Shown here piece after piece: positions 5,800 through 22,351 of a stretch of 64,000 nt of DNA. The translations under genes were made by a program, and so were the position numbers. How positions within the stretch are numbered: position 1 is the first letter of the stretch; every line of letters begins with the position of its first letter. Source of the DNA: an uncultured Rhodospirillaceae bacterium (lineage in GTDB: Bacteria > Pseudomonadota > Alphaproteobacteria > JAEULC01); assembly GCA_964557415.1 (NCBI GenBank), contig CAZLBB010000015.1, positions 616 through 64,615 on the forward strand. The letters run 5' to 3'. The notes beneath the pieces were generated by a model. The model was not told the origin of the DNA and did no database searches. It worked only from the letters and a program-made list of their open reading frames with translations.

Positions 5800-6156
5800 C
5801 TATGGCCGCCTCCCGTCGTCGCTCGGGGACGCCGGGGCGCGCTGCCGCCGGTCCTCCGCCAGGAGCGGCTCGACCTTCTCGTGCAGCGCCGACTGGGCGA
5901 GCGCATGCGTCACGACCGGGCCGGTGAAGAAGAACAGCACCAGCAGGAAGAGGAGCTTGAGGGCGACCAGGCTCGCGCCCGCCTGGAGCATCATGCCCAG
6001 GATCAGGAACGCGGCGCCCAGCGTGTCCGTGATGCTGGCCGCGTGCATGCGCGTGAAGAGCTCGGGCATGCGCACGAGGCCGACGGCGCCGACGATCGTG
6101 AAGAAGGATCCGACCAGGATCAGCGCCCAGCTCAGGACGTCGACGACCAGCGCCAT
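5800..6156 (-). CDS. mrpG: Mrp/Mnh antiporter subunit G
   Basis: Track ORF, 118 aa; motif GLVRMPELFTRMHAASITDTLG. Confidence 0.8.
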   Translation of the reverse strand: MALVVDVLSWALILVGSFFTIVGAVGLVRMPELFTRMHAASITDTLGAAFLILGMMLQAGASLVALKLLFLLVLFFFTGPVVTHALAQSALHEKVEPLLAEDRRQRAPASPSDDGRRP

Positions 6157-6437
6157 CAGGACTGCCGCTCCTCGTCCACGTCGTAGGCGAGGTCGCCGTG
6201 GCGGAAGAACTTGAGCACGGCGAGCGTGCCGATGATGTTGAGCAGCCCGTAGGTCAGGCCGATGTCGAGGAACTCGGGCCGCCCGGTCAGGAACCCGACG
6301 ACGGCGAGCAGCAGGATGGCGAGCGTGCCGACCGAATTCGCCGCCAGGACGCGGTCGAACACGGTCGGCCCCTTGACGGCGCGGGTGACGGCGAGCGCCA
6401 GCGCCACCAGCACGGCCAGCGCTGCGGCGACGAACAT
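6156..6437 (-). CDS. mrpF: Mrp/Mnh antiporter subunit F
   Basis: 93-aa C-terminal part of track ORF 6156..6959 starting MFVAAALAV; motif GRPEFLDIGLTYGLLNIIGTLAVLKF; ATGA overlap with mrpE stop. Confidence 0.8.
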   Translation of the reverse strand: MFVAAALAVLVALALAVTRAVKGPTVFDRVLAANSVGTLAILLLAVVGFLTGRPEFLDIGLTYGLLNIIGTLAVLKFFRHGDLAYDVDEERQS

Positions 6438-6910
6438 CAGGCCGAGCCCTCGAACCGGCTGACGCGGCGATCCATGCCGCCGCCCTCGAGATCGAGCGCG
6501 CCGTCCCGGACCAGTGCGTGCACGGTCAGGTCGTTGCCGCTGACGCCGACCGTGATGGTGCCGGGGGTCAGGGTGATGGAATTGGCGTAGACGTTGACGC
6601 CGAGCGGCGTCCGCTGGCTCGCCTTTACCACGGTCATGGTCGGCGAGATGGGCAGCCTGGGGTCGACGACGATCTTGGTGACGGCCCAGGCCGACTTTGC
6701 GATCTCCCGGATCAGCCAGGGAATGTAGGTGAGGGCGCCGAAGAACAGGTGGATCGGATGGCCCTCGGCGTCGGCGGTGCGCATGCGCACGGCGGCGAGC
6801 GCGCAGAGGACCGCGCAGACGGCGCCGACGGCGACCAGCGCCGGCGTGTAGTGCCCGGACAGGACGAGCCAAAAGGCGAACAGGAAGCCCGCCAGACTGA
6901 CGATCCGCAT
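6437..6910 (-). CDS. mrpE: Mrp/Mnh antiporter subunit E
   Basis: 157-aa C-terminal part of track ORF 6437..7492 starting MRIVSLAGFLFAFWLVLSG; MnhE-like. Confidence 0.8.
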   Translation of the reverse strand: MRIVSLAGFLFAFWLVLSGHYTPALVAVGAVCAVLCALAAVRMRTADAEGHPIHLFFGALTYIPWLIREIAKSAWAVTKIVVDPRLPISPTMTVVKASQRTPLGVNVYANSITLTPGTITVGVSGNDLTVHALVRDGALDLEGGGMDRRVSRFEGSA

Positions 6911-7050
6911 GGCCGAAACCTGTCCCCCCGACGATGAAGATGCCGCACGCGCCGGGCACACTTGCGGAACGAACGGTGCCCTTCCGGGGGGTCTTTTAGC
7001 CTGTCGGCCCGGGGCCAGCCAACAGGCAAATGCGTGACGCTTCGACGGTA

Positions 7051-10000
7051 TTAATACGCTGGTACCGGGGCCGAGAGGGTGCCTTGCCGCTTGAGTCCAC
7101 GCGCCTTCACGAGCCCGTAGATCGCCGGGATAACCAGCAGCGTCAGCAGGGTCGACGACGCCATGCCGCCGATCATCGGCACGGCGATGCGCTGCATGAC
7201 CTCCGAGCCGGCGCCCTGGCTCCACAGGATCGGCAGCAGCCCGGCGGTGATCGCCGCGACCGTCATCATCTTTGGCCGTACGCGCTCGACCGCACCGACC
7301 ATGATCGCCTCGCGGAGGTCGGCTGCGGTGGGGCTGCGGCCTTCGATCTCGCAATGGGCCAAGCGATCGTTCCAGGCGTGATCGAGGTAGATCAGCATCA
7401 CCACGCCGGTCTCTGCCGCGACGCCGGCCAGCGCGATGAAGCCGACTGCGACGGCCACCGATAGATTGAACCCGAGCCACCACATCAGCCACAGCCCGCC
7501 GACCAGCGCGAAGGGCAGGGACAGCATGACGATCAGCGTCTCGGGCACACGGCGGAAATTGAGATACAGCAGCAGGAAGATGATCAGCAGCGTGAACGGC
7601 ACCACGATCACCAGCCGCGCCTTGGCGCGCTCGAGGTACTCGAACTGGCCGCTCCAGGCGACGTAGTAGCCGGGCGGGAACTTGACCGTTGCGGCCACCG
7701 CCTTCTGCGTGTCGGCGACGTAGCCGCCGAGGTCGCGCCCGCGCAGGTCGACATAGATATAGACCGCAAGCTGCGCGTTCTCGGTGCGGATGCTGGCCGG
7801 ACCCTGCGCCAAGCCGACCTTGGCCACCTGGCCGAGCGGTACCGCGCCGCCGTTCGGCAGCGGAACGAGGACCTGCGTCGCGATCGCGCGCGGGTCGCTG
7901 CGCAGGTCGCGCGGGTAGCGGATGCTGACGGTGTAGCGCTCGCGCCCCTCGACCGTGGTGGTCACCGGCTCGGCGCCGAGCGCCATGGCGATCGTGTCCT
8001 GGAGGTCGCCGACCATCAGCCCGTAGCGCGCGAGCTGCGCCCGGTCGGGGTCGATGTTGAGGTAATAGCCGCCGATCACCCGCTCGGCGAAGGCGCTGCT
8101 GGTGCCTGGGACGGTGCGGATCGCCGCTTCGACCTGCCGGGCCAGGCGCTCCATCTCGGCGAGGTCGGTGCCGAACAGCTTGACGCCGACCGGCGTGCGG
8201 ATGCCGGTCGACAGCATGTCGATGCGCGCCTTGATCGGCATGGTCCAGGCGTTGGAGACGCCGGGAAACTGCAGCGCCCTATCCATCTCGGCGATCAGCT
8301 TGTCGATCGTCATGGCGGGGCGCCATTCGGCTTCCGGCTTCAGGTTGATCACCGTCTCGAACATCTCGATCGGGGCCGGGTCGGTCGCGGTGCTGGCGCG
8401 ACCCGCCTTGGCCATGACCGAGGCGACCTCGGGGAAGGACTTGATGATCTTGTCCTGCGTCTGCGCCAGCTCGGCGGCCTTGGTGACCGAAAGCCCCGGC
8501 AGGGTCGTCGGCATGTAGAGCAGCGTGCCCTCGTTCAGGTTGGGCATGAACTCGGCGCCGAGTTTCAGGGCCGGCCAGGCGCTGGCTCCGAGCACAACGA
8601 GCGCGACCAGCACCGTAAGCATCTTGGCGCGCAGCACCATGCGGATGAGCGGGCGGTACAGCCAGATCAGCAGGCGGTTCAGCGGATTGCGGCGCTCCGG
8701 CAGGATGCGGCCGCGCACAAACAGGATCATGAGCGCCGGCACGAGCGTCACCGACAAGAGCGCCGCCGCCGCCATGGCGAAGGTCTTGGTATAGGCCAGC
8801 GGCTTGAACAGGCGGCCTTCCTGCGCTTCCAGCGCGAAGATCGGCAGGAACGACACGGTGATGATCAGGAGGCTGAAGAACAGGGCCGGGCCGACCTCGA
8901 CGGCAGCCGCGATCAGGACCTCCGTGCGGTTCTGCTCGGGCCGCGCGCGCTCCAGGTGCTTGTGCGCGTTCTCGATCATGACGATCGCGGCGTCGACCAT
9001 GGCGCCGACGGCGATCGCGATGCCGCCCAGGCTCATGATGTTCGAGCTCAGGCCCAGCCAGCGCATGCAGATGAAGGCGATCAGCACGCCGACCGGCAGG
9101 GTGATGATGGCGACCAGCGCGCTGCGCACGTGCAGCAGGAACAGCACGCAGACCAGGGCGACGATCGCGCTTTCCTCGATCAGCGTCGCCTTGAGCGTGT
9201 CGATCGCGCGCAGGATCAGGTCCGACCGGTCGTAGACCGCCTCGATCTCGATCCCGCGCGGCAGGCTCGCGGCGATGTCGGCCAGCTTCTCCTTGACGCT
9301 CGCGATCACCGACAGGGCGTTCTCGCCGTAGCGCTGCAGCGCGATGCCGGAGACGACCTCGCCCTCGCCGTCCAGCTCGGCGATGCCGCGCCGCTCGTCC
9401 GGCGTCAGCTCGATGCGGGCGACGTCGCGCAGCAGCACCGGCACGCCGCCGTCGCTCTTCACCACGACCTGCTCGAGGTCGGCGACGCCCTTCAGGTAGC
9501 CGCGTCCGCGCACGGCGAACTCGGTCTCGGCCAGCTCGACCGTGCGGCCGCCGACATCGAGGTTGCTCTGGCGCAGCGCTTCGCGCACGCGCGCCAGCGG
9601 CACGCGCAGCATCTGCAGCCGGTGCGGATCGATCACGACGCTGTACTGCTTGACGAAACCGCCGACGCTGGCGATCTCGGCGACGCCTTCGGCCTTGGCC
9701 AGGCCATAGCGGATGTGCCAGTCCTGCAGCGAGCGCAGCTCGGCCAGGCTGCGCTGGGCGCCGCGCACGACGTACTGGTAGACCCAGCCGACCCCGGTGG
9801 CATCGGGGCCGAGCGACGGCGTCACGCCGGCCGGCAGCCGGCGCGCCGCCGAGTTCAGGTACTCGAGCACGCGCGAGCGCGCCCAGTAGAGGTCCGTGCC
9901 CTCGGCGAAGATCACGTACACGAACGAGACGCCGAAATAGGAGAAGCCGCGCACCACGCGCGACTTGGGCACGCTGAGCAGCGCCGTGGTCAGCGGATAG

Positions 10001-10197
10001 GTGACCTGGTCCTCGACCACCTGCGGCGCCTGGCCCGGGTACTCGGTGTAGACGATCACCTGGACGTCGGAGAGGTCGGGGATCGCGTCGAGCGGCACGC
10101 GCGTCACGGAATAGAGGCCGGCGGCCACCAGCAAGACGGTCGCGACCAGGACCAGGAAGACGTTCCGGGCCGACCAGCGGATGACGGCGGCGATCAT
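7051..10197 (-). CDS. cusA: CusA/CzcA-family heavy-metal efflux RND transporter (copper/silver type by context)
   Basis: Track ORF, 1048 aa; N-terminus [23 protein letters not shown]...[34 protein letters not shown], typical CusA; adjacent cusB and cusF. Confidence 0.9.
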   Translation of the reverse strand: [1048 protein letters not shown]

Positions 10198-11618
10198 GGC
10201 TGCTGCTCCCCGTTCGCCGCGGGCGGTGGCGACGTGAAGGCCTGGAGCGCGGCCTTGAGGTTGCTTTCGGCGTCGATCAGGAAGGTGGCGCTGGTGACGA
10301 CCTCTTCGCCCTCGGCCAGGCCTTCGATGACCTCGACCATGCCCTCGCCGCGCCGGCCGATTTTGACCGCGCGCGGCTCGAAGCGGCCTTCGCCCCGGGC
10401 GACCAGCACGACCTGCCGCATGCCGCTGTCGATCACCGCGCTGTCGGGTGCCGCGATCACGGCGGCGCCGCTGCCGCCGGCGCCGATCGTCACGTGGGCG
10501 AACATGTCGGTCTTGAGCATCAGATCGGGATTAGGCAGCTCGATGCGCACGCGCGCGGTGCGCGTCTCGGGCTTGAGGTCGGGGTAGACGAAGGTGACCT
10601 TGCCTTCGCGCTCCTCGCCCGGCAGCGCCAGGAAGACGGCGGTGGCGCGATCGCCGATCCGCACCTGCGGCAGCTCCTGCTCCGGCACCTCGGCGATGAC
10701 CCAGACGGTGCCGAGGTCGGCGATGCGATAGAGCTCGCTGCCCATCGCCGCGCGCTGGCCGTCGATCACCTTCTTCTCCAGCACGATCCCGCTCATCGGC
10801 GACGGCCAGTCGATCGTGCGCGGGTTGGCACCGGTCGCGCGCACCTCGCGGATGCGAGCCTCGGGCAGGTCGAGATTGCGCAGCCGCTGCATCGGTCCCT
10901 CTATCATCGAATTGGGGATGGACGGATCGGCGTCGCCGCCGGTGCCGCCGCGCGCCTTGTGCTCGCGCGTCGCGACGATCAGGTCCACCTGCGCCTGCTG
11001 CAGCTGCGCGCTGTAGACGCGGAACAGCGGCTGGCCGGCCTTCACGCTCTGGCCGGTCGCGTTGACGAACAGCTCCTCGATGAAGCCGTCGAAGCGCAGC
11101 GTCACCGACTTGATGCGTCGCTCGTCGAGCTTGACCGTGCCCGGCACGCGCACGGGCGTCGCCAGCACGCGCCGCTCCACCTTCCCCGTGCGCACGCCGC
11201 TGCGCTGCACGCGGTCGAGGCTTACCTTCACAATCGAGCCGTCCTCCGGCTCCTCGCCCTCGTGGACGGCGATGTAGTCCATGCCCATCCAGTCCTTCTT
11301 GGGTGTCGGCGACGTGTCGGGCAGGCCCATCGGGTTGCGGTAGTAGAGGATGCGCCTGCCGCCCGCCGTTTCGGGCGTGGCGCGGGACCCGGACGGTGCC
11401 CCAGGCGCGGCGCTCGCGTCGCCGCCCGACGCGACGGCCGCGCCGGCCAGCTGCCGTGGCCACAGGGCTTCAAGCGAACGGCCCTGGCCCAGCCAGAATC
11501 CGGCGGCTCCGGCGGTTGCGACCGCCGCCAGCGCCAGGGCGACCGCGGCGCCGCGGCGCGCCAAGCCGGCGGCCCGGGAGGAATCCGTGCTCGACTCGTT
11601 TGTGGACATACTTGCCAC
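10194..11618 (-). CDS. cusB: CusB-like RND efflux periplasmic adaptor (MFP)
   Basis: Track ORF, 474 aa; stop overlaps cusA start; membrane-fusion-protein-like sequence. Confidence 0.85.
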   Translation of the reverse strand: MASMSTNESSTDSSRAAGLARRGAAVALALAAVATAGAAGFWLGQGRSLEALWPRQLAGAAVASGGDASAAPGAPSGSRATPETAGGRRILYYRNPMGLPDTSPTPKKDWMGMDYIAVHEGEEPEDGSIVKVSLDRVQRSGVRTGKVERRVLATPVRVPGTVKLDERRIKSVTLRFDGFIEELFVNATGQSVKAGQPLFRVYSAQLQQAQVDLIVATREHKARGGTGGDADPSIPNSMIEGPMQRLRNLDLPEARIREVRATGANPRTIDWPSPMSGIVLEKKVIDGQRAAMGSELYRIADLGTVWVIAEVPEQELPQVRIGDRATAVFLALPGEEREGKVTFVYPDLKPETRTARVRIELPNPDLMLKTDMFAHVTIGAGGSGAAVIAAPDSAVIDSGMRQVVLVARGEGRFEPRAVKIGRRGEGMVEVIEGLAEGEEVVTSATFLIDAESNLKAALQAFTSPPPAANGEQQP

Positions 11619-11739
11619 CCATCATCGGCCGGGCGCCCGTCTTGTCGGGGGCACCCGGCTACTCTCGCGGCACACGCCGCGAAGGAACATGCCGAAGGCG
11701 CGACCCGGAGGGCCGGCCGCGTCGGTCGGTCTGGGGGCT

Positions 11740-12081
11740 CTAAGCGCGCGGAGGCGGCTTGTCGGGCAGGAGGCGCTGTCCGTCCGAAATTGCTTCGGCG
11801 TCGGCGATGGCCGTGGGGATGGTCGCAACGAGCGGCATCGTGTCGGTCGCGAGGCCGACGTGCTGCAGCGAGCAGGCGCTCACGGCGCAGGCCGCGTAGC
11901 TGCAGTCCGCCATGCACGGCATGCCGGCGCAACCGTCTTCCATCGGCACCAGCGAAACCTGCTCATGGCCGATGGCGGGCGTACCCGAAGAGCATACGAC
12001 CTCGGCGCCTCCCGACACCGTCAAGGGCACCAGCATGGTGAGCACGAACAGGATCGTTCGCAGCACGCGCGACATGGTCAT
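11740..12081 (-). CDS. small secreted Cys/Met/His-rich protein (candidate periplasmic metal-binding; DUF2946-like by recollection only)
   Basis: Track ORF, 113 aa; signal peptide MTMSRVLRTILFVLTMLVPLTVSG; motif CAGMPCMADCSYAACAVSAC; paralog of 16274..16651. Confidence 0.6.
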   Translation of the reverse strand: MTMSRVLRTILFVLTMLVPLTVSGGAEVVCSSGTPAIGHEQVSLVPMEDGCAGMPCMADCSYAACAVSACSLQHVGLATDTMPLVATIPTAIADAEAISDGQRLLPDKPPPRA

Positions 12082-12250
12082 ACCTTGCCGTCATTCCCTA
12101 AAGGAGTAATTGACGCAGATCAGTTCACATCGCTGCGAGCCAAGCCTCAGGCGCGCTGATCCCGGGCTTTCCCGCGACACAGAGCCGGAAAAACCGGGCG
12201 TTGCCAAGCAACTGGGCGGCAGCCGCCGATGGCGCGGAGGCTTCCGGCGG

Positions 12251-12562
12251 CTATTTGGGCTCGACCGACTCGAGCCAGAATGCGCCCTTCTCGCGGATCA
12301 GCGCGAATCTCACCTGCTGCCCTTCCTTCACGGCGTCCAGCAGCTTCGGGTCCTTCACCCGGAACACCATGGTCATGGCCGACATCTTCATCTCCGGGAT
12401 GGGTCCGTGCCGCAGCGTGATCTTGGCCTGCTCGCGGTCAATCTTGCGCACTTCGCCCTCGCCGCGGCCGGATTCGGCCTGGGCAAGCGCCGGGGGCGTC
12501 GCGCCGGCCGTTCCCATGGCGATGAGGAATGCGGCGGCGAGGGTGTGCAGTCGACGCTTCAC
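12251..12562 (-). CDS. cusF: CusF-like periplasmic Cu(I)/Ag(I)-binding protein
   Basis: Track ORF, 103 aa; signal peptide; GEVRKIDREQAKITLRHGPIPEMKMSAMTMVF (His/Met metal site typical of CusF). Confidence 0.8.
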   Translation of the reverse strand: MKRRLHTLAAAFLIAMGTAGATPPALAQAESGRGEGEVRKIDREQAKITLRHGPIPEMKMSAMTMVFRVKDPKLLDAVKEGQQVRFALIREKGAFWLESVEPK

Positions 12563-12563
12563 G

Positions 12564-13079
12564 TCAGCCTCCGACGTTCTTCTCGGTGACGATGATTTCG
12601 CCTTTCATCCCGGCCTCGAAATGGCCGGGGATCAGGCAGCCGAAGTAGAACCTTCCCGGCCTGGTGAATTTCCAGACCAGCGTGCTCGTTCCGCCGCCCT
12701 CGGCGCTGGCCGCGTTCGGGTCGTCGTGCTCCATCTCCGGAAAGCGCTGCATCTCCTCGGCGTGCTCGGCCAGTTCGTCCAGCGTCCCCAGCACCATTTC
12801 GTGCTTCTGGGCGCCGACATTCCGCAATTGGAAGCGGATCGTTTCGCCGGCGCGGATGCTCACCCGGTCCGGCACGAAGCGGAACTCGTCGTTCATCACG
12901 ATCCGGATTGTCCGCGCCGGCGCCTTCGGGTCGCCCGGCTCGCCGAGCGCTTCGCCATGGCCCGGCTTGGCGGGAGTGGGCGCCGGTCCCATCTTGGCGT
13001 GCGGCTCCGGCCCGTGCGCCCAGGCGGCGTCAAACCAGCCGAGAGCGACCGAGGCGACAAGCATCGCAGTGAACTTCAT
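12564..13079 (-). CDS. periplasmic cupredoxin (blue-copper, pseudoazurin/CopI-like)
   Basis: Part of track ORF 12564..13121 from MKFTAMLVASVALGWFDAAWA signal; C-terminal FGCLIPGHFEAGMKGEI type-1 copper ligand motif. Confidence 0.8.
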   Translation of the reverse strand: MKFTAMLVASVALGWFDAAWAHGPEPHAKMGPAPTPAKPGHGEALGEPGDPKAPARTIRIVMNDEFRFVPDRVSIRAGETIRFQLRNVGAQKHEMVLGTLDELAEHAEEMQRFPEMEHDDPNAASAEGGGTSTLVWKFTRPGRFYFGCLIPGHFEAGMKGEIIVTEKNVGG

Positions 13080-13108
13080 GAGATCGAGTCTCCCATTCCT
13101 GTTGGGCG

Positions 13109-14392
13109 TTATGCTTTCCACTCATAGGCGACGGTTCCCTTCGGGTGGCTGTACCAGCCCGGGTCCCTGTAGTCGCCGCGCGCAAGCCCTTCCCTGACCT
13201 TGACCACCGTGAACATGCCGCCCATCTCGATCGGCCCGAACGGGCCGGTCCCGGTCATCATCGGCAGCGTGTTCTCGGGCAAAGGCATTTCCATCTCGCC
13301 CATGTCGGCCATGCCGCGCTCGCCCATCAGCATGTAGTCGGGCACGAGCGTGGTGATCCTCTTGGCGACCTTGCGATGGTCGACACCGATCATGTTGGGC
13401 ACGTCGTGGCCCATCGCGTTCATCGTGTGGTGGGACTTGTGGCAGTGCAGCGCCCAGTCGCCGGCCACGTCGGCGTCGAATTCGAAGGCGCGCATCGAGC
13501 CGACCGGCATGTCGATCGTCGTCTCGGGCCAGCGGGCCGAAGGCGGCACCCAGCCGCCGTCGGTGCATGTGACGCTGAAGTGGTAGCCGTGCATGTGGAT
13601 CGGATGGTTGGTCATGGTCAGGTTGCCCATGCGCACGCGCACGCGATCGCCGCGCCGAATGACCAGATGATCGATGCCCGGGAAGACGCGGCTGTTGAAC
13701 GACCACAGATTGAAGTCGAGCATGGTCGCGGTCGTCGGCGTCGCCGCGCCGGGCTTGATGTCGTAGGCGTTGACGAGGAAGCCGAAGTCTCGATCGACGC
13801 GGAACTGCGCCGGATCGCGCGGATGCACGATGAACAGGCCCATCATGCCCATCGCCATCTGCACCATCTCGTCGGCGTGCGGGTGATACATGAAGGTCCC
13901 GCTCTTCTTCAGCTCGAACTCGTAGACGTAGGTCTTTCCGACGGGAATCTGCGGCTGCGTCAGGCCGCCGACGCCGTCCATGCCCGACGGCAGCAGCATG
14001 CCGTGCCAGTGGATCGTCGTGTGCTCGGGCAGGCGGTTGGTGACGAAGATGCGGACCCTGTCACCCTCGACGGCTTCGATCGTCGGACCCGGGCTTTCGC
14101 CGTTGTAGCCCCAGAGATTCGCCTTCATGCCGGGCGCAAGCTCGCGCACGACCGGCTCGGCCACGAGATGGAACTCCTTCCAGCCGTTGTTCACCCGCCA
14201 GGGCGCCGACCAGCCGTTCAGGGTGACGATCGGGTTGAAGGGGCGGCCGTTCGGCGGCGGCGGCGGCACCTGCGTGGCGGGACCGCGCGCCGGATAGGCG
14301 GGATCCGGCAAGGCGGCGAGCGAGGAACGGGCCACGAGCCCGGCGCCGAGGGCGGCGGCGCCGGCGGACAGGATGGTTCGGCGGGTCATCAT
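13109..14392 (-). CDS. multicopper oxidase (CopA/PcoA/CueO family), Tat-exported
   Basis: Part of track ORF 13109..14440 from MMTRRTILSAGAAALGAG (twin-arginine); HWHG, HPIHMHG, HCHKSHH copper-site motifs. Confidence 0.85.
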   Translation of the reverse strand: MMTRRTILSAGAAALGAGLVARSSLAALPDPAYPARGPATQVPPPPPNGRPFNPIVTLNGWSAPWRVNNGWKEFHLVAEPVVRELAPGMKANLWGYNGESPGPTIEAVEGDRVRIFVTNRLPEHTTIHWHGMLLPSGMDGVGGLTQPQIPVGKTYVYEFELKKSGTFMYHPHADEMVQMAMGMMGLFIVHPRDPAQFRVDRDFGFLVNAYDIKPGAATPTTATMLDFNLWSFNSRVFPGIDHLVIRRGDRVRVRMGNLTMTNHPIHMHGYHFSVTCTDGGWVPPSARWPETTIDMPVGSMRAFEFDADVAGDWALHCHKSHHTMNAMGHDVPNMIGVDHRKVAKRITTLVPDYMLMGERGMADMGEMEMPLPENTLPMMTGTGPFGPIEMGGMFTVVKVREGLARGDYRDPGWYSHPKGTVAYEWKA

Positions 14393-14411
14393 GGCGGGAT
14401 TCCTTCCTTGC

Positions 14412-15833
14412 TCAATGCGCCGGCACGGACAGGCCGGCACCGGCGGCGACGCTGCGCAAGGGCCGGGATGCCTCGGGCGCGCCGCCGATCAACGTCACGA
14501 ACTGCAGGTCGGTTTCGGCGAGGCGGAAATCGCGCGCGGCCTCGATCGCCGCGACCACGACGCCGATCTGCTCGCGGGCGTCGGTCAGCAGCTCGAATAC
14601 GCTCACCAGCATGCCGTTGTACCGGAGCAGCAGCTCTTCCGAGATGCGCTTGCGCAGCGGCACGACCTCGTCGCGATAGTGGCGCGCGATGTCGTAGGCG
14701 GTGCGATACGACACGAAGGCGGTGCGCGCCTCGGACCGGGTGTTGATGGCGAGCGCTGCCAGACGGTTCACCGACTGCATGTAGGTCTGTTCCGCGCGCG
14801 ACGCGCGCGCGTCGCCGAGGTCGAAGATCGGCACTTCGAACGAGACCTCGAAGCCCTTTTGCGACACGCCGGCACGCTCGGTTTTCGACAGGTAGCCGGC
14901 TTCCAGCACATTGACGAAGCGCGTCGCGCGCGAAAGGTCGAGCGACTTGCGCAGCGCATCCGTGTCGGATTTCGCGACCTGGATGTCGTAGCGGGTGGCG
15001 ACGGCGCGCGCCTCGATGTCGGCCGCCTCTTCGATCCGGTCCGGCAGGTCCGGCAGGCGCGGCGGCAGGGTGAACGCGACGTTCTCGCCCCAAAGGCCCA
15101 GGAGCCGCGTCAGCGCCTCGCGCTCGCTCGCGGCATGCAGGCGCGCCCGTGCCAGCAGGCCGGCCGACTCGGCATAGAAGGCCTGCTGGCGCGCGGCGTC
15201 CAGCGCGCTGAAATTGCCGACCTGCCGCATCTGGCGCCCCAGCAAGGCCTGCGCCTCGGCCGCGTCCTTCGCCTGCGCGACGAAGGCGGCGATCTGCTCG
15301 GCCGCCACGGCCTTGATCCAGGCGCGCCGCGTCTCGGCCGCTAGCTGCAGCACGTCGCCGGCAGCCCGCAGCTTCGACTGCTCGAAGCGCCGCTGCTCGA
15401 TCAGGTAGTTGATGGGAAACACGAGGAACCCGAGGACGTTGACCGAGACATGGCGCTCGATCTCGAGCTCGCCGCTGCCCATGATCTTCGAATAGGAGAA
15501 GCCCGGGTTGGGTGGCCGGCTGGCAGCGGCAAGGTCCGCGGCCGCGATGCCGAGCTCGGCGAAGGAAGCCTGCAGGCCGCGGTTGTTCAAGAGCGCGACC
15601 TTGATCGCCTCATCCATGCCGAGCGGCTGGGCCAGCAGCGCGCGCGCCTGCTCTCGGAGCGCCTCGCGCTCCTTTTCCGAGGTGGCGTAGGTGGCGGCGA
15701 TGCCCGTGGTCGGGCGGGTCGTCGCGGCGACTTCCTCGATGGCCTCGTCGCGGAAGGTCGAGGCGCAGGCCGTGAGGCCGAGCGTCAGCACGCCGACCGC
15801 GACCGCACCGAGCTTGCGTCGGATGGCTGTCAT
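14412..15833 (-). CDS. TolC/CusC-like outer membrane efflux lipoprotein (NodT family)
   Basis: Part of track ORF 14412..16097 from MTAIRRKLGAVAVGVLTLGLTAC (lipobox); OMF repeats. Confidence 0.85.
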   Translation of the reverse strand: MTAIRRKLGAVAVGVLTLGLTACASTFRDEAIEEVAATTRPTTGIAATYATSEKEREALREQARALLAQPLGMDEAIKVALLNNRGLQASFAELGIAAADLAAASRPPNPGFSYSKIMGSGELEIERHVSVNVLGFLVFPINYLIEQRRFEQSKLRAAGDVLQLAAETRRAWIKAVAAEQIAAFVAQAKDAAEAQALLGRQMRQVGNFSALDAARQQAFYAESAGLLARARLHAASEREALTRLLGLWGENVAFTLPPRLPDLPDRIEEAADIEARAVATRYDIQVAKSDTDALRKSLDLSRATRFVNVLEAGYLSKTERAGVSQKGFEVSFEVPIFDLGDARASRAEQTYMQSVNRLAALAINTRSEARTAFVSYRTAYDIARHYRDEVVPLRKRISEELLLRYNGMLVSVFELLTDAREQIGVVVAAIEAARDFRLAETDLQFVTLIGGAPEASRPLRSVAAGAGLSVPAH

Positions 15834-15843
15834 GGACGCTCCC

Positions 15844-16200
15844 TCAGGGCTTGTGATGCTGGTGTTGTGCGTCGCCGGGCGTCTGGCCGGTCGGCGCCTG
15901 CTCGCCGGCCGGTCGCTCGCCGGCCGGTGCTTCCTCGAGGTGACCCATATGGCCGCCAAGGCGCCCCACGGCGTCGTTGGCGTCGCGCCACGAGGCTTTG
16001 GGGCCGTCCCGCCAGCCTTCGTAGCCGTCGAATGCCGAGCGATAGATGATGCCGGGCGCGGGCGCGCCGGGATCGCTCGGGTCGGCCGCCCGGGCAAACG
16101 GCATGGCGGCCAGCAAGCACGGCAGCAGCGATGTCAGGGCGGCGATCGCGATGCCGGGATTCCGCGCCGGCGGCATGCCGGGGCGTATTGAGGGCTTCAT
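15844..16200 (-). CDS. small secreted His-rich protein (candidate periplasmic metal-binding)
   Basis: Track ORF, 118 aa; signal peptide; C-terminal GGHMGHLEE...DAQHQHHKP; 10 nt upstream of the OMF gene. Confidence 0.5.
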   Translation of the reverse strand: MKPSIRPGMPPARNPGIAIAALTSLLPCLLAAMPFARAADPSDPGAPAPGIIYRSAFDGYEGWRDGPKASWRDANDAVGRLGGHMGHLEEAPAGERPAGEQAPTGQTPGDAQHQHHKP

Positions 16201-16273
16201 GACTGCTCCGCACGCACGTAACGCGACGGAACGCGCCGACAGGGGGCACGGTCCGCAAACGACTGACGTCGGA

Positions 16274-16651
16274 TCAGCGTGGCGGACGGTCGAGCGGTGG
16301 CGGGAACAGGCCGGCTGCGCCTTCGACCAGGCGGCTCAACAGGATGGACACGTCGGCGTCAACCGCAGCGATGCCCTGTTCCCCCGGCGCCACGCAACTG
16401 GCGCTTCCCCCAGTGCAATAGGCGTGGAGCGGCTCGTGCGCGCAACCGGAGTCTCCGTGCGGCGTATGATCGCTTGCCATTGCCGGCGCGACCGGGGCTC
16501 GAACCTGCGCTTCGTCCGCCGGCATGGTCGCGGTGTCGTTTCGGTCGCGCGCCGCTGTCTCACGGTCTTGATGGGCGCTGCCATGCGCGTACGCCGCGGG
16601 AATGGCCGTGAACGCCATGAGGAGCGCGACGACCAGCCCGGCAAGGAGCAT
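16274..16651 (-). CDS. small secreted Cys-rich protein, paralog of 11740..12081
   Basis: Part of track ORF 16274..16786 from MLLAGLVVALLMAFTAIPAAYA signal; CAHEPLHAYCTGGSASC; shared C-terminal tail with the other paralog. Confidence 0.55.
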   Translation of the reverse strand: MLLAGLVVALLMAFTAIPAAYAHGSAHQDRETAARDRNDTATMPADEAQVRAPVAPAMASDHTPHGDSGCAHEPLHAYCTGGSASCVAPGEQGIAAVDADVSILLSRLVEGAAGLFPPPLDRPPR

Positions 16652-17015
16652 CCATGCCGGTTTGCACACGCGCGACGAAGCGCAGGGCCATCGATGCGAT
16701 GCTAGGCAGGACACCATGCTCTCGCTCTTAGAGTCGGTCCCCTGAGACGTCAAGGGCATTCGCGGGGGGCAGGCGGTAACAAGCACGACAATTTGATGGC
16801 CTTATCCGTTGGGGCCTCGCTCGCGGAGCTTGCACTGGCGGCCGTCCCGACAATTTCGTGGAAGCAGTGTTGGTGCACCCGCCGTCCAAATGACCGCCGA
16901 CGGCCCTCTTCCATGGCCGCGGTACGGCAGGCGACAGCAATGCACGTCCTTTGCAACTGCCGCGGTCCCGTGCCAAGCTTCGGCGACCGCAAATAGGGGA
17001 CGGGGGCGATCGATC

Positions 17016-17768
17016 ATGACCGCGTTGCGCGAGGTGAGGCAGGCCGAGGACGTGGAGTGGCAGCTGCGTTGCGACCTCGCGGCGTCGTTCCGCGTGCAGG
17101 CGCGGCTCGGCATGAACGAGCATATCGGCAACCACCACAGCCTGATGCTGCCGGGCTCCGATACGCTGTTCCTCATCAACCCGCGCGGGCTGCTGTTTCA
17201 GGAGATCACCGCCAGCAAGCTGATCGTCTGCGACCTCGACGGCAACGTCGTGCGCGGGCGGGGCGAGCTGCGCAAGGTCGCGTTCCACATCCACACGCGC
17301 ATCCACCTGGCGCATCCGCAGGCCATATGCGTGATGCACGCCCATCCGCACTATCTGACCGCGCTGTCGCTGATGGAAGGCGGCCGGATGCAACTGTCGC
17401 ACCACAACGACCTCATGCTCTACGACCGCATCGTCTACGACGACGAGGCGCACGGGCCGGTGCACGACAACTCGGAAGGCGACCGCATCGCGCGCGTCAT
17501 GGGCGACAAGACCATCATGGTGATGGCCAACCACGGCGTCACCGTCGTGGGCCCGACCGTGCACGACGCCTTCGACGAGCTCTACATGGCCGAACGCACC
17601 TGCATGTACCAGATGACCGCGCGCATGGCAGGCGGCACGCTGCGGCGCCAGCCCGACGCGCTGCGCCGGCATCACCGCACAGCCTTCGGCGACTACTACG
17701 ATTCGCGGCTGCACCTCGACGCGTGGCGGCGCATCCTCGACCGCGAGGAACCGGACTACGCGAGCTGA
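17016..17768 (+). CDS. class II aldolase/adducin-family protein
   Basis: In-frame part of track ORF 16809..17768 from MTALREV; HIHTRIHLAHPQAICVMHAHPHY metal-binding His motif. Confidence 0.8.
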   Translation: MTALREVRQAEDVEWQLRCDLAASFRVQARLGMNEHIGNHHSLMLPGSDTLFLINPRGLLFQEITASKLIVCDLDGNVVRGRGELRKVAFHIHTRIHLAHPQAICVMHAHPHYLTALSLMEGGRMQLSHHNDLMLYDRIVYDDEAHGPVHDNSEGDRIARVMGDKTIMVMANHGVTVVGPTVHDAFDELYMAERTCMYQMTARMAGGTLRRQPDALRRHHRTAFGDYYDSRLHLDAWRRILDREEPDYAS

Positions 17769-17782
17769 ACCAAGGACCGCCC

Positions 17783-18841
17783 ATGCCCGATCAACGGCTT
17801 CCCCACCAAGAAGAGAGACAACAACCGCCCATGGCTGCCTCGCGCATCACGGCCACGATCGACTACGACAAGAGCGGCAGGCAGACGGGGTTCCTGCGCC
17901 TGCCGCATTCGGTGCACGAATCGGCCTATGGCTGGATCCCGATCCCGATCGTCTGCATCAAGAACGGCAGCGGGCCGACCGTGCTCCTGAGCTCGGGCAA
18001 CCACGGCGACGAGTACGAGGGCCAGGTCACGCTGATGAAGCTGATCCGCGAGCTCGAGCCGGCCATGGTGCAGGGGCGGATCATCTTCCTGCCCGCGGCG
18101 AACTTCCCGGCGGCGATGGCCGGCCGGCGCACCTCGCCGATCGACGGCGGCAACCTGAACCGCTCCTTCCCCGGCGACCCGGACGGCACGCCGACCAAGG
18201 TGATCGCGCATTACATCGACAGCGTGATCCTGACCCAGTGCAACTACGCCTTCGACCTGCACTCGGGCGGCAGCTCGCTGATGTACGTGCCGAGCGCGCT
18301 CGGCACGGTCGTGCCGGGCGCGACCGAACGCAACAAGCGGGTTCTGGAGTTGCTCGACGTGTTCGGCGCGCCGATCGGCTATGTCTCGAACCGGCCGATG
18401 GGCGCCGACCAGACGCTGGGCGCCTCCGCGGCGCGGCGGGGCGCCATCGCGCTCGGCACCGAGATGGGCGGCAGCGGCACGGTCACGCCGGCGGCGCTGA
18501 AGATCGCCGGCGCAGGCGTGCGCCGCCTCCTCAAGCATCTGGGGGTCGTGCCCGACGTGAAGGTCGAGAAGTCGCCCGGGACGCGGCTGATGGAGGTTGG
18601 CGGGCCCGACTACTACGTCTACACGCCCGAGAACGGCGGCGTGTTCGAGCCGCTGGTCGAACTGGGCGACACGGTCAAGGCCGGCCAGCCCGCCGCCGCG
18701 ATCCATTTCTCGCACACGCCCTGGCGCGAGCCGGAGGTCGTGCGCTTCGAGCGGGACGGCATGGTCCTGTGCAAGCGCATCCCCGGCCGCACCGAGCGCG
18801 GCGACTGCCTGTTCCATCTCGGGACCGACTATCGCAGCTAG
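17783..18841 (+). CDS. succinylglutamate desuccinylase/aspartoacylase (AstE/AspA) family deacylase
   Basis: In-frame part of track ORF 17057..18841 from MPDQRL; SGNHGDEYEG...NLNRSFPG...DLHSGG zinc-carboxypeptidase-like motifs. Confidence 0.75.
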   Translation: MPDQRLPHQEERQQPPMAASRITATIDYDKSGRQTGFLRLPHSVHESAYGWIPIPIVCIKNGSGPTVLLSSGNHGDEYEGQVTLMKLIRELEPAMVQGRIIFLPAANFPAAMAGRRTSPIDGGNLNRSFPGDPDGTPTKVIAHYIDSVILTQCNYAFDLHSGGSSLMYVPSALGTVVPGATERNKRVLELLDVFGAPIGYVSNRPMGADQTLGASAARRGAIALGTEMGGSGTVTPAALKIAGAGVRRLLKHLGVVPDVKVEKSPGTRLMEVGGPDYYVYTPENGGVFEPLVELGDTVKAGQPAAAIHFSHTPWREPEVVRFERDGMVLCKRIPGRTERGDCLFHLGTDYRS

Positions 18842-20967
18842 GCGTCGGGCACCTTGAACGGCGCCGGGTCGAGGAAGCGGTCGACGGCGTTGCGGATCAG
18901 GCGCGACACGTTGTTGTCGTAGTCGTTGTGCGCCAGGCTGGCGACGAAGCTGATGGCGCCGGTCGACAGCACGGCGCCGCCGCCCGCGGTCTCGAAGAAC
19001 ACGATGTCGGCCTTGACGCGCGGGTTGAGCGTGCCGTCGACGCCGTGCGTGTTCGACAGCATCTCCTCGTTCACCAGCAGGAAGGCGTTGGAGTGGTTCT
19101 CGGACGAGGCGACCACCAGCGCGTGCGGCGGCGAGCCGAGGCGCTGGTCGTAGCAGTCGATCTCGAGCCCGGCCGCGCCGTCGCCCCAGGCGCCGAAATC
19201 GCCGAGGATCTCGTCCTCGATGCCCTTGAACAGGAACGCGGCGCGTGGGTCGCGCGCGGCCGCGGTGCGGCGGTAGTAGGTCGAGGCGTCGAAGCCCTGG
19301 GCGATGAAGCCGATGCCGACCAGCGCGTTGGGCGGCCGGCCGATCCGGCGCCACAGGCCGCCGAGCTCGCCGGTCGCGTGGTAGTACTGCCCGGGCATCT
19401 CCTCCCAGGCGCGCGTGCCGTCCTCGGCGCGGCGCAGCTCGATCATGTCGGGATGCGCCGGCGGGAAGGTCACGCGCCAGTAGAAGCCGTTGCCGCCCAT
19501 GTACATGAACCGGCCGCCGCCGGCGAGATAGGCCTCGGTCGCGCGCAGCATCTCCAGCGTGTAGTACTCGGGATGGCTGCCGGACATGACGCAGCCATAG
19601 GGCTTGAGCAGCGCCGCGCCCTTCTCCTGCAGCTCGTGGTCGCTGATCACGTCGTACGCGATGCCCTGCCGGTCGAGCCAGTCGATCAGGCAGAGGTCCA
19701 TGTTGAAGTTCCAGAACCGCCCGGTCGGCCGGAAGTTGAACAGCGGCCGGCGCGCAGTCGCGTGCGCGACGCCGAACCCGTCGCGATGCACGTCGTAGGT
19801 CGAGCTGCCGAACTCCTTGTGCCCGGCCAGCATGACGTCGGTCATGTCCACCGTCGGCAGCGCGCCCATGGACAGCTCGAACGGTCCCGGCGTCATGCGC
19901 CTTCGGTAGTTGGCATAGGCGAGATAGGTCACGGTCGAGGCCTGGACCGCGAGCCGCGCGCGCTTCGCGCCGGGAGCGGGGCTGACGATGAAGCCCACGT
20001 AGAAGGCGGGGCCCGATGCAAGCAGCTTCACCGCGTAGAAGCCGCTGCGCAGCGAGGCGGGCAGGCGGAAGCGCAGGCTTTCCTTCCAGTGCGCGTCGGC
20101 CAGGTCGTCGCCGTGGAAATGGATCGCGCCGTAATGCGACGGATTCTGCTTCCAGCAATGCACCGTGCCGTCCCACGTGGCACCGGTGACCGCCCGCTTC
20201 GGCGCGTTGACGGTGCGGCCGTGCAGGGCGGCGGGCGAGAGGTCCTCGATCCAAGTCGTGTCGATGCCGCGCGAGAAATCCCAGCGCGCCTCGAGAGTCC
20301 CGGAGCTCAAGGCCGGCGCCTCGAGCTTGCCGTAGTAATGGTCGCGCGCGCCGGCGGGCGACGGCGCGGCCGCCATCAGCAGCGGCCCTTCGGCCTTGAT
20401 CCCCGGGCGCGCGCGGCCAGTGACCTCGACCGGCTGCTCGTCGTGGAAGCCCGCGGCGGGCTTGACGCCGAGCGTCACGGCGCCGGTCGCGACGTCGTAG
20501 CGCGCGTCGACGCGGTACCACCAGCGCGTCCGCAGCTTCCGTCCGGTCGTCACGATGTCGTCGCCGACGACGAGCGCGACGGCGCCGGCCTCGTCCAGCA
20601 CCAGGCGAACGGCGCCGAGCGACAGCAGCGCCTGCACGCCGCGGCCGGGCAGGGTTGGCCAGACCTCCACCGACAGCGCGATGCTCCCAAGCGCCGGCAG
20701 GCCGTCGACCACGGCGTAGGAGCCGATGCCGGTCGGCTGCGCCTCGCCGCGGTGCTCGTCCGCGAGCGCGTCGATCGCGACGGGTTCCTCCTTGAGGCCC
20801 GGGCCCTTCGGTCCGGTCTCGCCGCAGATCAGCCGCACGAGCTGGGCGCGGTAGCGCCGCGCCGGATCCAGCACGCTGACGCGCAGCGTCACCTCGTCGC
20901 CCGGATGGGCGTAGAGTCGGTCGACATAGCCGACGACGCCCGGGCCGCTCGGCGTCGGAGTGGTCAT
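18838..20967 (-). CDS. N,N-dimethylformamidase large (beta) subunit-like protein
   Basis: 709-aa C-terminal part of track ORF 18838..21438 from MTTPTPSGPGVVGYVDRLYAHPGDEV; family recognised from overall sequence; ATGA overlap with upstream small ORF. Confidence 0.8.
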   Translation of the reverse strand: MTTPTPSGPGVVGYVDRLYAHPGDEVTLRVSVLDPARRYRAQLVRLICGETGPKGPGLKEEPVAIDALADEHRGEAQPTGIGSYAVVDGLPALGSIALSVEVWPTLPGRGVQALLSLGAVRLVLDEAGAVALVVGDDIVTTGRKLRTRWWYRVDARYDVATGAVTLGVKPAAGFHDEQPVEVTGRARPGIKAEGPLLMAAAPSPAGARDHYYGKLEAPALSSGTLEARWDFSRGIDTTWIEDLSPAALHGRTVNAPKRAVTGATWDGTVHCWKQNPSHYGAIHFHGDDLADAHWKESLRFRLPASLRSGFYAVKLLASGPAFYVGFIVSPAPGAKRARLAVQASTVTYLAYANYRRRMTPGPFELSMGALPTVDMTDVMLAGHKEFGSSTYDVHRDGFGVAHATARRPLFNFRPTGRFWNFNMDLCLIDWLDRQGIAYDVISDHELQEKGAALLKPYGCVMSGSHPEYYTLEMLRATEAYLAGGGRFMYMGGNGFYWRVTFPPAHPDMIELRRAEDGTRAWEEMPGQYYHATGELGGLWRRIGRPPNALVGIGFIAQGFDASTYYRRTAAARDPRAAFLFKGIEDEILGDFGAWGDGAAGLEIDCYDQRLGSPPHALVVASSENHSNAFLLVNEEMLSNTHGVDGTLNPRVKADIVFFETAGGGAVLSTGAISFVASLAHNDYDNNVSRLIRNAVDRFLDPAPFKVPDA

Positions 20968-21284
20968 GGCAGCTTCAGTTCCTGCCCGCTCAGGGCGCGC
21001 CAGCGCCGCTTGAAGGCGGCCCATTCGCCGTCCTCGAGCCGCGTGAAGACCTCGTCGGTGAACAGGCGCGGCGGCTGGCCGTCGGGCAGGCGCTGGCCGA
21101 GCACCCACTTTCCCGGCTCGATCGAAACCAGGATAAGATCCTCGCAGTTCTCGGCGCGGCGCATGACGTTGAGCAGGGCCTGCAGCTCGGGGCTGTGGCG
21201 GCCGAAGGGACGCGCGCGGTATTCGGCCGCGAGGTCGGTGCGCTTCGGATCGATGCCGCCGACCGTCGATTTGCCGGGGCTCAT
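20964..21284 (-). CDS. small protein (106 aa), putative DMFase small-subunit-like partner
   Basis: C-terminal part of track ORF 20964..23468 from MSPGKSTVGG; protein-like composition; translationally coupled at both ends (ATGA overlaps). Confidence 0.55.
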   Translation of the reverse strand: MSPGKSTVGGIDPKRTDLAAEYRARPFGRHSPELQALLNVMRRAENCEDLILVSIEPGKWVLGQRLPDGQPPRLFTDEVFTRLEDGEWAAFKRRWRALSGQELKLP

Positions 21285-22351
21285 GCGACGTCGAACCGGG
21301 CGCTGACGCTGGCGGCGGCGTCCTGGATCTCGCGCCAGGTCGTGGCGTCGATGTCGATGCCCTTTGCCACGCGCTCGGCCCGGGCGATCCGCTCCGGCTC
21401 GCCCGGCACCAGGACGGGCAGGGCGGGGTCGGCCGCACGCGTCTGCTTCATATAGGCGATCAGGGCGTCGATCTCGGCCTCGACGAAGGCGCGCGTCGTC
21501 ATGCGCTCCGGGTCGATCACCACGGTCAGCATGCCGTTGACGATGCCGCGATCGCGCGGGTTGGCCGGCTGGATCGTGCCGGAGCCGACGATCGCGCCGG
21601 CCAAGAGCTCGGCGATCAGCGCGAGGCCATAGCCCTTGTGCTCGCCGAACGGCGTCACCGCGCCGATCGGCGGCTCGTAGATGACCGCGGGATCCGTGGT
21701 CGGCGCGCCGTTTGCGTCGATCAGGGCGCCCTCGACCACCTTCTTTCCCTCGTTGTAGGCGACGCGCACCTTGCCCAGCGCGATGCGGCTGGTGGCGAAA
21801 TCGAGGATGATCGGATCGGTCGCCGCCGTACCGGGCACGGCGATGCAGATGGGATTGGTCGACATGCGGCCTTCGCGGCCGCGGAACGGCGTGACCTTCG
21901 GCGGGCCGGAATTGCCGTTGACGAAATGCACCGACAGCAGGCCGGCTTTCGCCGCCTGCTCGCCATAGGCGCCGACGCGGCCGATGTGATGCGTGTTGCG
22001 CAGGCCGTGGACGGCGACGCCGTTGCCGCGCGCGACGCCGATCGCCCATTCCATCGCGTCGCGCGCGATCACCTGGCCATAGCCGTTGCGTCCGTCCCAG
22101 ACGGCGAACTGCGCGTTGTTGCTGAGGATCGTGGGCGACTGGTTGGGTACGAGCGTGCCGGCTTTGAAGTTGCGCACGTAGTGCGGCAGCATGCCGACGC
22201 CGTGGCTGTCGTGCCCGGCGAGGTTGGCGTCGACCAGATGATCGGCGACGGCCTTCGCCTCGGGCTCGCGGCTGCCCATCGCCATGAGCATGCTCGTGGT
22301 GGCGCGGCGCAGGCTCTGGTGATCGTGGCGCATCGGCGTCAGTCTTTCCAT
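21281..22351 (-). CDS. Ldh family oxidoreductase (malate/L-lactate dehydrogenase family 2)
   Basis: Track ORF, 356 aa; MLPHYVRNFKAG...GHKGYGLALIAELLAG motifs of the Ldh_2 family. Confidence 0.8.
   Translation of the reverse strand: MERLTPMRHDHQSLRRATTSMLMAMGSREPEAKAVADHLVDANLAGHDSHGVGMLPHYVRNFKAGTLVPNQSPTILSNNAQFAVWDGRNGYGQVIARDAMEWAIGVARGNGVAVHGLRNTHHIGRVGAYGEQAAKAGLLSVHFVNGNSGPPKVTPFRGREGRMSTNPICIAVPGTAATDPIILDFATSRIALGKVRVAYNEGKKVVEGALIDANGAPTTDPAVIYEPPIGAVTPFGEHKGYGLALIAELLAGAIVGSGTIQPANPRDRGIVNGMLTVVIDPERMTTRAFVEAEIDALIAYMKQTRAADPALPVLVPGEPERIARAERVAKGIDIDATTWREIQDAAASVSARFDVA

Follow-up and report, generated by a model that had tools for sequence, protein, structure and literature searches.

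Why should a copper efflux cluster carry two small, cysteine-containing open reading frames (ORFs) among its efflux and oxidase genes? The question is raised by a stretch of 64,000 nt from an uncultured Rhodospirillaceae bacterium (contig CAZLBB010000015.1, positions 616 to 64,615 of the forward strand), the whole of which is called the window here. Its cus-type cluster lies entirely on the minus strand, as do all cluster features given below, in DNA of ~69% GC, and has the order B–X118–cusC–MCO–copI–cusF–A–cusB–cusA, where A and B are the two small ORFs, X118 encodes a secreted protein of 118 aa and MCO a multicopper oxidase. An earlier note on this DNA took A and B for paralogous members of an uncharacterised family of periplasmic Cu(I)-handling proteins. 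We consider it probable that they are instead two independent, unrelated-looking CutF-like (DUF2946-like) leader peptides, which would act in cis and sense copper, A gating cusBA and B gating X118-cusC and, by coupling, probably the oxidase, cupredoxin and cusF genes as well. Free Cu(I) chaperones they probably are not.

The class to which we compare them has already been studied, so that "uncharacterised" does not apply; its mechanism was first described between 2021 and 2025 (PMC8456105, PMC9426467, PMC9973294, bioRxiv 10.1101/2025.02.05.636593). CutF, encoded in the cutFOG operon of Rhodobacter capsulatus, has 118 aa with a Sec signal peptide, a C69xxxC73 motif and the C-terminal sequence P109EPEGPPPRL118. 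No CutF protein can be detected, and its action is confined to cis: with periplasmic Cu bound, CutF stalls the ribosome at PPP, whereupon a stem-loop masking the Shine-Dalgarno (SD) sequence of cutO melts, and PPP is required for regulation (PMC8456105, PMC9973294, bioRxiv 10.1101/2025.02.05.636593). CruR (Bp2923) of Bordetella pertussis, a DUF2946 protein proper, carries CXXC and RAPP, the latter ~3 residues from the C-terminus; the spacing of 45 ± 2 residues between the two is functionally required, the signal peptide is dispensable, and a TonB-dependent importer is controlled negatively via Rho (PMC9426467). These two proteins are the only ones for which experiments have shown that a nascent exported peptide senses an extracytoplasmic metal; the rest of a large class is defined by rules: a length below 150 aa, PP among the last 15 residues, a signal peptide and, downstream on the same strand, a gene behind an intergenic region (IGR) of less than 1000 nt (PMC9973294). 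In functional terms the class is further marked by a central Cys/His motif set at a conserved distance from the Pro motif, by an mRNA structure over the downstream SD that the stalled ribosome opens, and by Cu-dependent stalling that requires EF-P and the signal peptide. Its members were retrieved by iterative jackhmmer searches from 29 CutF-like clusters of a sequence similarity network. It frequently precedes genes for OEP/CusC, CusB, CusA or CusF, and SilD and CusD of Cupriavidus metallidurans have been labelled CutF-like (PMC9973294).

Two small ORFs with fixed motifs

ORF A occupies 11740..12081 and encodes 113 aa (CAGMPCMADCSYAACAVSAC, ending in LLPDKPPPRA); a public record (P0001) starts at ATG 12075 and has 111 aa. 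Reading frame, peptide and the location between cusF (PF11604, E 1e-25) and cusB (HlyD_D23, E 4e-71) are as the earlier note had described them. The coding statistics of A are good, the GC content at third codon positions (GC3) being 0.86 as compared with 0.85–0.94 in the neighbouring genes. Among 5.8 billion proteins only five clusters of homologues were found; a profile search with their alignment yielded zero additional members, and a scan of genomic DNA added one locus, L010, from an Alphaproteobacteria metagenome-assembled genome. Invariant in the family are GCAG.PC...C...ACA..ACSLQH and S.G..LLPDKPPPR. The former corresponds to the putative metal motif GCAGMPCMADCSYAACAVSAC(SLQH) at 11872..11931, which contains C56xxxC60 and all five Cys of which are invariant; the latter includes the putative proline-rich arrest motif LLPDKPPPRA at the C-terminus (11743..11772, LLPDKPPPR being invariant). 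The tail reads PDKPPPRA/L/I in 5/5 homologues, for example PDKPPPRL in P0002.

A-like genes always stand directly upstream of cusB-cusA on the same strand, the IGR measuring 130–141 nt. The gene on their other side differs from locus to locus: it is cusF here, MsrP-like in L002/L005, and in L003 and L010 divergent genes are found there. A conserved AT-rich element, GATGTGAACTGATC..GTCAAT..CTTTAGGGAAT, lies upstream of A at 12094..12131, and it recurs as GATGTGAACTGATC..GTCAAT..CTTTAGG(G)AAT 5' of the homologues in L010 (7300..7345)/L006 and L003, loci in which an unrelated gene stands upstream. In DNA that is otherwise 69% GC, this element is a probable promoter or operator; if so, A and cusBA would form a unit that may be transcribed independently of the genes further upstream.

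ORF B (16274..16651; CAHEPLHAYCTGGSASC, ending in LFPPPLDRPPR) stands at the 5' (upstream) end of the cluster, also in agreement with the earlier note. The frame and peptide thus hold, whereas the start at 16651, giving 125 aa, is probably placed too far downstream: ATG 16717 (147 aa; 16274..16717) appears likelier, since the homologues have an Arg-rich n-region and "SW" ahead of the hydrophobic core. Extended mechanically, the ORF reaches GTG 16786, but its 170 aa would exceed the 150-aa limit, and both the homologues and a promoter-like element argue against this start. The element, CTTGAC-N17-CTAAGA (16726..16754, recognised by inspection), lies directly 5' of B and ends only ~8 nt before ATG 16717, for which reason the B mRNA may be leaderless or have a very short leader. 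L007 and L009 show a similar geometry, with the element in the form CTTGAC-N16-18-(C/T)A-rich. A scan of 6000..17200 for the sigma-70 consensus reported no promoter, this element included.

In public protein collections B is missing. Neither a word-indexed search, which gave zero matches, nor an exhaustive phmmer search returned B itself, from which it follows that the gene is unannotated. Exhaustive phmmer retrieved three full-length relatives (E 3e-10 to 3e-5, 38–43% identity), and a metagenome scan added a fourth, L011. The family is marked by D..C.H.PL...C, contained here in the putative metal motif C-A-H-E-P-L-H-A-Y-C-x6-C (16394..16444), and by GL.P.PLDRPPR-stop, conserved in 5/5 at the C-terminus, where the putative proline-rich arrest motif LFPPPLDRPPR is located (16277..16309). 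The invariant residues are encoded by differing codons, which indicates selection on the peptide and hence translation of B. On this conservation we judge B to be a real, unannotated gene. In all homologous loci a B-like gene is followed by an X118-like gene and then by cusC.

Two observations made on the homologous contigs may be added. L010 contains at 3913..4317 (+) a third CutF-like ORF of 134 aa with a CC..P motif and the C-terminus REPPPPRL, for which no Pfam match was obtained and which stands upstream of an 81-aa membrane ORF. From a single sequencing run, SRR8109493, both L001 and L007 derive, the former a contig identical to the A region of the window, the latter a B-family locus from a different organism (39% identical to B).

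Measured against the published rules for CutF-like proteins, A has 111–113 aa and B 125–147 aa, depending on the start. They end in PDKPPPRA and PPPLDRPPR, respectively, and each tail is invariant across its homologues. The signal peptides named in the earlier note are judged here by inspection and hydropathy, which show in both an N-terminal hydrophobic segment (core with Kyte-Doolittle values >2 over 12 residues) followed by an AxA-type site; the predicted cleavage sites read ASA|G in the A homologues and AYA|HGS, AQA|HNG, AAA|HDG and GRA|HSG in the B family. Downstream on the same strand, cusB comes 130 nt behind A, and X118 comes 73 nt behind B with cusC next, an arrangement seen in all homologous loci. 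CusB and, one gene further on behind B, OEP are among the neighbours listed in PMC9973294. The placement next to cus genes, to which the earlier note had drawn attention, is itself already on record for CutF-like genes (PMC9973294). A six-frame scan of the whole window for ORFs of 60–180 aa with an N-terminal hydrophobic stretch and PP in the last 15 residues returned A and B and, besides them, only a single Mnh subunit and a single antisense artefact. The co-occurrence of A and B in the cus cluster is thus not background noise of GC-rich DNA.

In both families the invariant residues are concentrated in the Cys motif and at the C-terminus. The distance between the two is fixed: 48 residues from CxxxC to PPP in A, or 38 from the last Cys (5/5), and 41–42 residues from C-x8-C to RPPR in B (5/5). 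CutF, CruR and SilD show comparable distances of 40, 45 and 47 residues, respectively. The linker is the least conserved part of the proteins, yet its length does not change, whereas that of the N-terminal region varies by 12–24 residues. Rare codons are fixed within the Pro motifs. The middle Pro of PPP is encoded by CCT in 5/5 A genes, although CCT makes up 4.2% of the Pro codons in the window's genes; in the case of B, the Arg of DRPPR is CGT in 4/4 genes, with CGT accounting for 2.7% of the Arg codons. Synonymous sites adjoining these two codons vary freely.

The proposed paralogy or duplication of A and B was not borne out. BLASTP gave E 0.61 and a profile-profile comparison (hhalign) a probability of 0.3% with E 0.21, aligning a GC..P...C segment only; common to both proteins are the architecture and the short C-x3-P-x4-C spacing. 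The description of both as rich in Met/His holds only loosely. The guess that they are DUF2946-type fits their architecture, i.e. signal peptide, Cys/His motif, C-terminal Pro motif and position upstream of Cus genes, but not the PF11162 hidden Markov model (HMM), which matched neither A nor B at E<=1, nor these two and six homologues at E<=10. CXXC and RAPP are absent from both, A having CxxxC and PPPR and B having C-x8-C and RPPR. The PF11162 negative carries little weight, since SilD (pMOL30), counted as CutF-like in the literature, fails this model too. Membership in the CopK, CusF or another known periplasmic copper family, of which the earlier note had named CopK/CopQ-like ones for a scan, received no support from Pfam/NCBIfam, where A and B gave chance-level matches only and their homologues likewise fell into no family. 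Sequence searches of the PDB found no relatives of A or B, and a tblastn search of 72,556 plasmids with A, B and X118 as queries found no match.

Complementarity at the two junctions

In CutF the downstream SD is masked by RNA structure. Here, the B-X118 IGR (16201..16273; 73 nt) contains a hairpin and, at 16206..16209, the SD GGAG. This junction folds better than shuffled sequences (-49.7 kcal/mol, z = -3.0, 1/200). In the minimum free energy (MFE) structure the SD is paired with the LFPPP codons, whereas in the consensus of four homologues the RPPR codons (CGU CCG CCG CGC) pair with GCGCGUGCGGA, which includes the SD. The latter helix comprises 10 bp and is kept in 4/4 homologues, with 97.5% of the cells paired.

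For A, the IGR in front of cusB (11610..11739; 130 nt) has three internal hairpins. In its MFE structure an invariant GGGUGGC (11614..11620; GGGTGGC in the DNA) just before the cusB ATG pairs with GCCCCCA (11732..11738), which begins one base after the A stop codon. The KPPP codons (GCCNCC) provide a second complement to this cusB-proximal GGGUGGC, and in each homologue one or both of these complements are retained. The SD-masking step is thus consistent with the data but unproven.

A model of two copper-sensing leaders and its alternatives

If A and B work as CutF does, each would be exported co-translationally through Sec by means of its signal peptide, so that the Cys/His motif would already be in the periplasm while the ribosome still decodes the C-terminal Pro motif, fixed 38–48 residues further on. 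Binding of Cu would hold up export and elongation, and the ribosome would come to a pause close to the stop, at the codons for PPP or RPP. There it would cover nucleotides, namely those of the Pro motif and those immediately following the stop, that are otherwise paired with the SD region of the next gene. Translation of that gene would then be switched on, i.e. cusB-cusA behind A and X118-cusC behind B, the latter probably together with MCO-copI-cusF by coupling. That Cu is bound, that the ribosome stalls, which way regulation runs and that the RNA acts as a switch are elements of this scheme that we infer from R. capsulatus CutF; for stalling, the rare codons fixed in the Pro motifs give an indirect hint.

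A bolder version, possible but doubtful in our view, is that one efflux cluster is run by two nascent-chain sensors of unrelated families, each gating one half (B: X118, cusC, oxidase, cupredoxin and cusF; A: cusBA), with the arrest-motif codons, including the fixed rare codon, serving as the anti-SD. If this were true, a peptide arrest signal and an RNA switch would be encoded within the same dozen nucleotides. B's invariant N-terminal His could then add a second, Cu(II)-type site, and the two leaders could respond each to its own copper species or threshold. Genes for copper-responsive regulators (CusRS/CopRS, CueR) were not evident in the flanks at 6157..7050 and 16790..21440, which were inspected by eye and without a Pfam scan; as no dedicated transcription factor gene stands next to the cluster, translational sensing could be its main copper input.

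A number of observations weigh against the leader-peptide interpretation. The family alignments are shallow (4–5 sequences), and A and B have no sequence-level link to CutF, CruR or SilD. Regarding the RNA, the B helix shows no covariation among the four homologues, and its CG-repeat character tolerates a slide of +/-2. The A junction folds no better than shuffles (z = -1.07), and RNAalifold applied to the A homologues picks another partner for the SD. When a ribosome was masked in silico on the 3' end of the leader, SD accessibility changed slightly and inconsistently, and the SD was freed only partly; this simulation is not used as support here. Complementarity to a G-rich SD is moreover partly automatic, because Pro codons are C-rich. 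The A-cusB IGR of 130–141 nt exceeds that of most CutF-like cases (<100 nt) and is nearer to the 162 nt of CruR, and the gene right behind B is X118 and no transporter gene. Finally, a His follows the predicted signal-peptidase site in 5/5 B-family proteins (~16583..16585 in the window; P0006–P0008 and L011). In the processed chain this residue might form a Cu site of the histidine-brace type; a pure leader-peptide model leaves it unexplained, and its invariance hints at a function of the processed chain.

The last point leads to the view closest to the earlier note, according to which A and B are mature secreted Cu(I)-binding chaperones or buffers whose partners in trans would be CusF, CusB or the oxidase, the Pro tail being a protein-interaction motif. 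The signal peptides and invariant Cys clusters, including CxxxC in A, would suit such proteins, as would a site among genes for periplasmic copper proteins and an N-terminal His metal site formed after cleavage in the B family; CutF itself was first interpreted likewise (PMC8456105). Yet neither CutF nor CruR, the sole proteins of this architecture to have been tested, can be detected as a protein, and both work in cis only. A regulatory role also fits the families here better than a free periplasmic protein does, given the invariant Pro motif with its fixed rare codons, a linker that is variable in sequence at fixed length, complementarity to the downstream SD and linkage to the downstream gene only. 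Apart from the signal helix, moreover, AlphaFold gave A no confidently predicted fold (pLDDT 46.7); with an alignment of five sequences and low confidence, we use this result as weak negative evidence for a stable fold only. The earlier guess of a DUF2946-type family linked to copper was a good lead; the role of a free chaperone is quite unlikely. B could also be dismissed as a chance ORF in the 5' untranslated or promoter region of the operon, in GC-rich DNA. Its weak coding statistics (GC3 0.76 versus 0.85–0.94 in the neighbours), its absence from both public protein collections and the overlapping ORFs in other frames would be expected in that case. Full-length homologues with the same C-terminus in four independent contigs, invariant amino acids under differing codons, conserved synteny and the promoter-like element conserved upstream make this very improbable, and we reject it on conservation.

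It is also conceivable that a leader peptide, mainly A, operates in the manner of CruR: the stalled ribosome would govern Rho-dependent termination in the long IGR, and no SD would be unmasked. With efflux genes downstream, this requires that Cu promote stalling and block Rho loading. The length of the A IGR resembles that of cruR-bfrG (162 nt), the first ~20 nt after the A stop are C-rich and G-poor (AGCCCCCAGACCGACCGAC) and in this respect rut-like, and SD masking lacks statistical support at this junction. On the other hand, A ends in PPPR(A/L/I) as in CutF and not in the RAPP of CruR, and the invariant GGGUGGC beside the cusB start, with its complements, argues for control of ribosome binding. 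We consider this variant unlikely and favour leaders of the CutF type for both A and B. A further idea, that A and B are precursors of ribosomally synthesised and post-translationally modified peptides, was dropped, as genes for modifying enzymes are not nearby.

The remaining cluster and known systems

X118 (15844..16200), the first gene after B, encodes a conserved secreted, His-containing protein with the features AADPSDP..YRSAFDGYERWRDGPK..WRDAND.VGRMGGHMGH..QHQ[QH]HKP-stop, for which Pfam, NCBIfam and PDB gave no match. It is conserved in L007/L008, L009 and L011 and may be a positional analogue of CzcI. Its stop codon lies 11 nt before the ATG of cusC and is overlapped by the SD GGGAG. 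The cusC-like gene (14412..15832; OEP, E 6e-24) encodes an outer-membrane factor, and its end overlaps the start of the MCO gene (13109..14440). The oxidase is short (~430 aa), has a Tat-type RRTIL leader and matched Cu-oxidase_3 and Cu-oxidase_2 only, the middle Cu-oxidase domain giving no match. Genes for a CopI-like cupredoxin (12564..13121) and for CusF (12251..12562) come next; behind A follow cusB (10194..11609), whose start at ATG 11609 is kept in the homologues, and cusA (7051..10197). By eye, the cluster is flanked by Mnh/Mrp antiporter subunits on one side and by unrelated metabolic genes on the other. Rfam models had no match in the window at the gathering threshold, nor at E<=1 over 11400..17000, and terminator-like matches in 6000..17200 were at chance level.

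Systems of this kind, as well as their association with cus genes, are already known from the literature. New are two rare subfamilies that are invisible to HMMs, an unannotated gene, the presence of two putative leaders in one cluster, the rare codons fixed in putative arrest motifs and the arrest-motif codons as candidate anti-SD. The two subfamilies are very rare, amounting to five and four clusters in a set of billions of proteins; neither was caught by standard HMMs, and one of them escaped gene callers entirely. Such leaders may thus be identified without sequence homology by hallmarks such as fixed motif spacing, an invariant Pro tail with rare codons and complementarity to the downstream SD. 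The locus would offer a compact test case, with separate putative leaders for the adaptor/pump genes (cusBA) and for the outer-membrane/oxidase genes of a single Cus system. For annotation, it suggests that small ORFs in cus/cop clusters be labelled regulatory leaders in place of hypothetical secreted copper proteins.

In the general principle proposed here, an exported leader whose Pro-containing C-terminal arrest motif holds the ribosome and exposes the next ribosome-binding site, A and B resemble SecM/RAPP-type arrest peptides. SecM, however, monitors secretion activity and not metal, and the arrest sequences differ. SilD and CusD stand at the head of silCBA/cusCBA-type resistance-nodulation-division operons and have a signal or transmembrane segment; B is their positional counterpart, except that X118 separates it from cusC. 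SilD shares with A a CxxxC motif (LCQAHC), followed after 47 residues by RPPPRP, but 12 further residues lie beyond this Pro motif, and hhalign was not significant against either A (E 0.11) or B (E 0.37). With CruR and DUF2946, A and B have in common a small product of an upstream ORF, exported (in A and B, as predicted), a Cys motif and a Pro-containing arrest motif (putative in A and B) a few residues from the stop, with conserved spacing between the motifs (45 residues in CruR, 38–48 here), as well as the long IGR and the place in front of the other genes of a copper operon. The motifs themselves, CXXC and RAPP in CruR, are replaced by CxxxC and PPPR in A and by C-x8-C and RPPR in B, with PF11162 unmatched.

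CutF is closest in its features, although sequence homology to A or B is not detectable. All three are small (118 aa versus 111–147 aa), with a Sec signal peptide (predicted in A and B) and a Cys motif, which is of the CxxxC type in CutF and A, and are encoded on the same strand as, and immediately upstream of, a gene for periplasmic copper defence, the SD of which can pair with an upstream anti-SD (a candidate one in A and B). The likeness extends furthest in A, where, as in CutF, ~40 residues separate the Cys motif from PPP, after which the protein ends with R and one more residue (PEGPPPRL in CutF, PDKPPPRA in A); the IGR behind A is longer, however (130–141 nt). CutF acts on a multicopper oxidase, whereas the proposed targets here are cusBA and X118-cusC, and two leaders, known from their sequences alone, would serve one cluster. 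In CutF the anti-SD is part of a separate intergenic stem-loop; the candidate anti-SDs of A and B are located in or beside the codons of the putative arrest motif itself.

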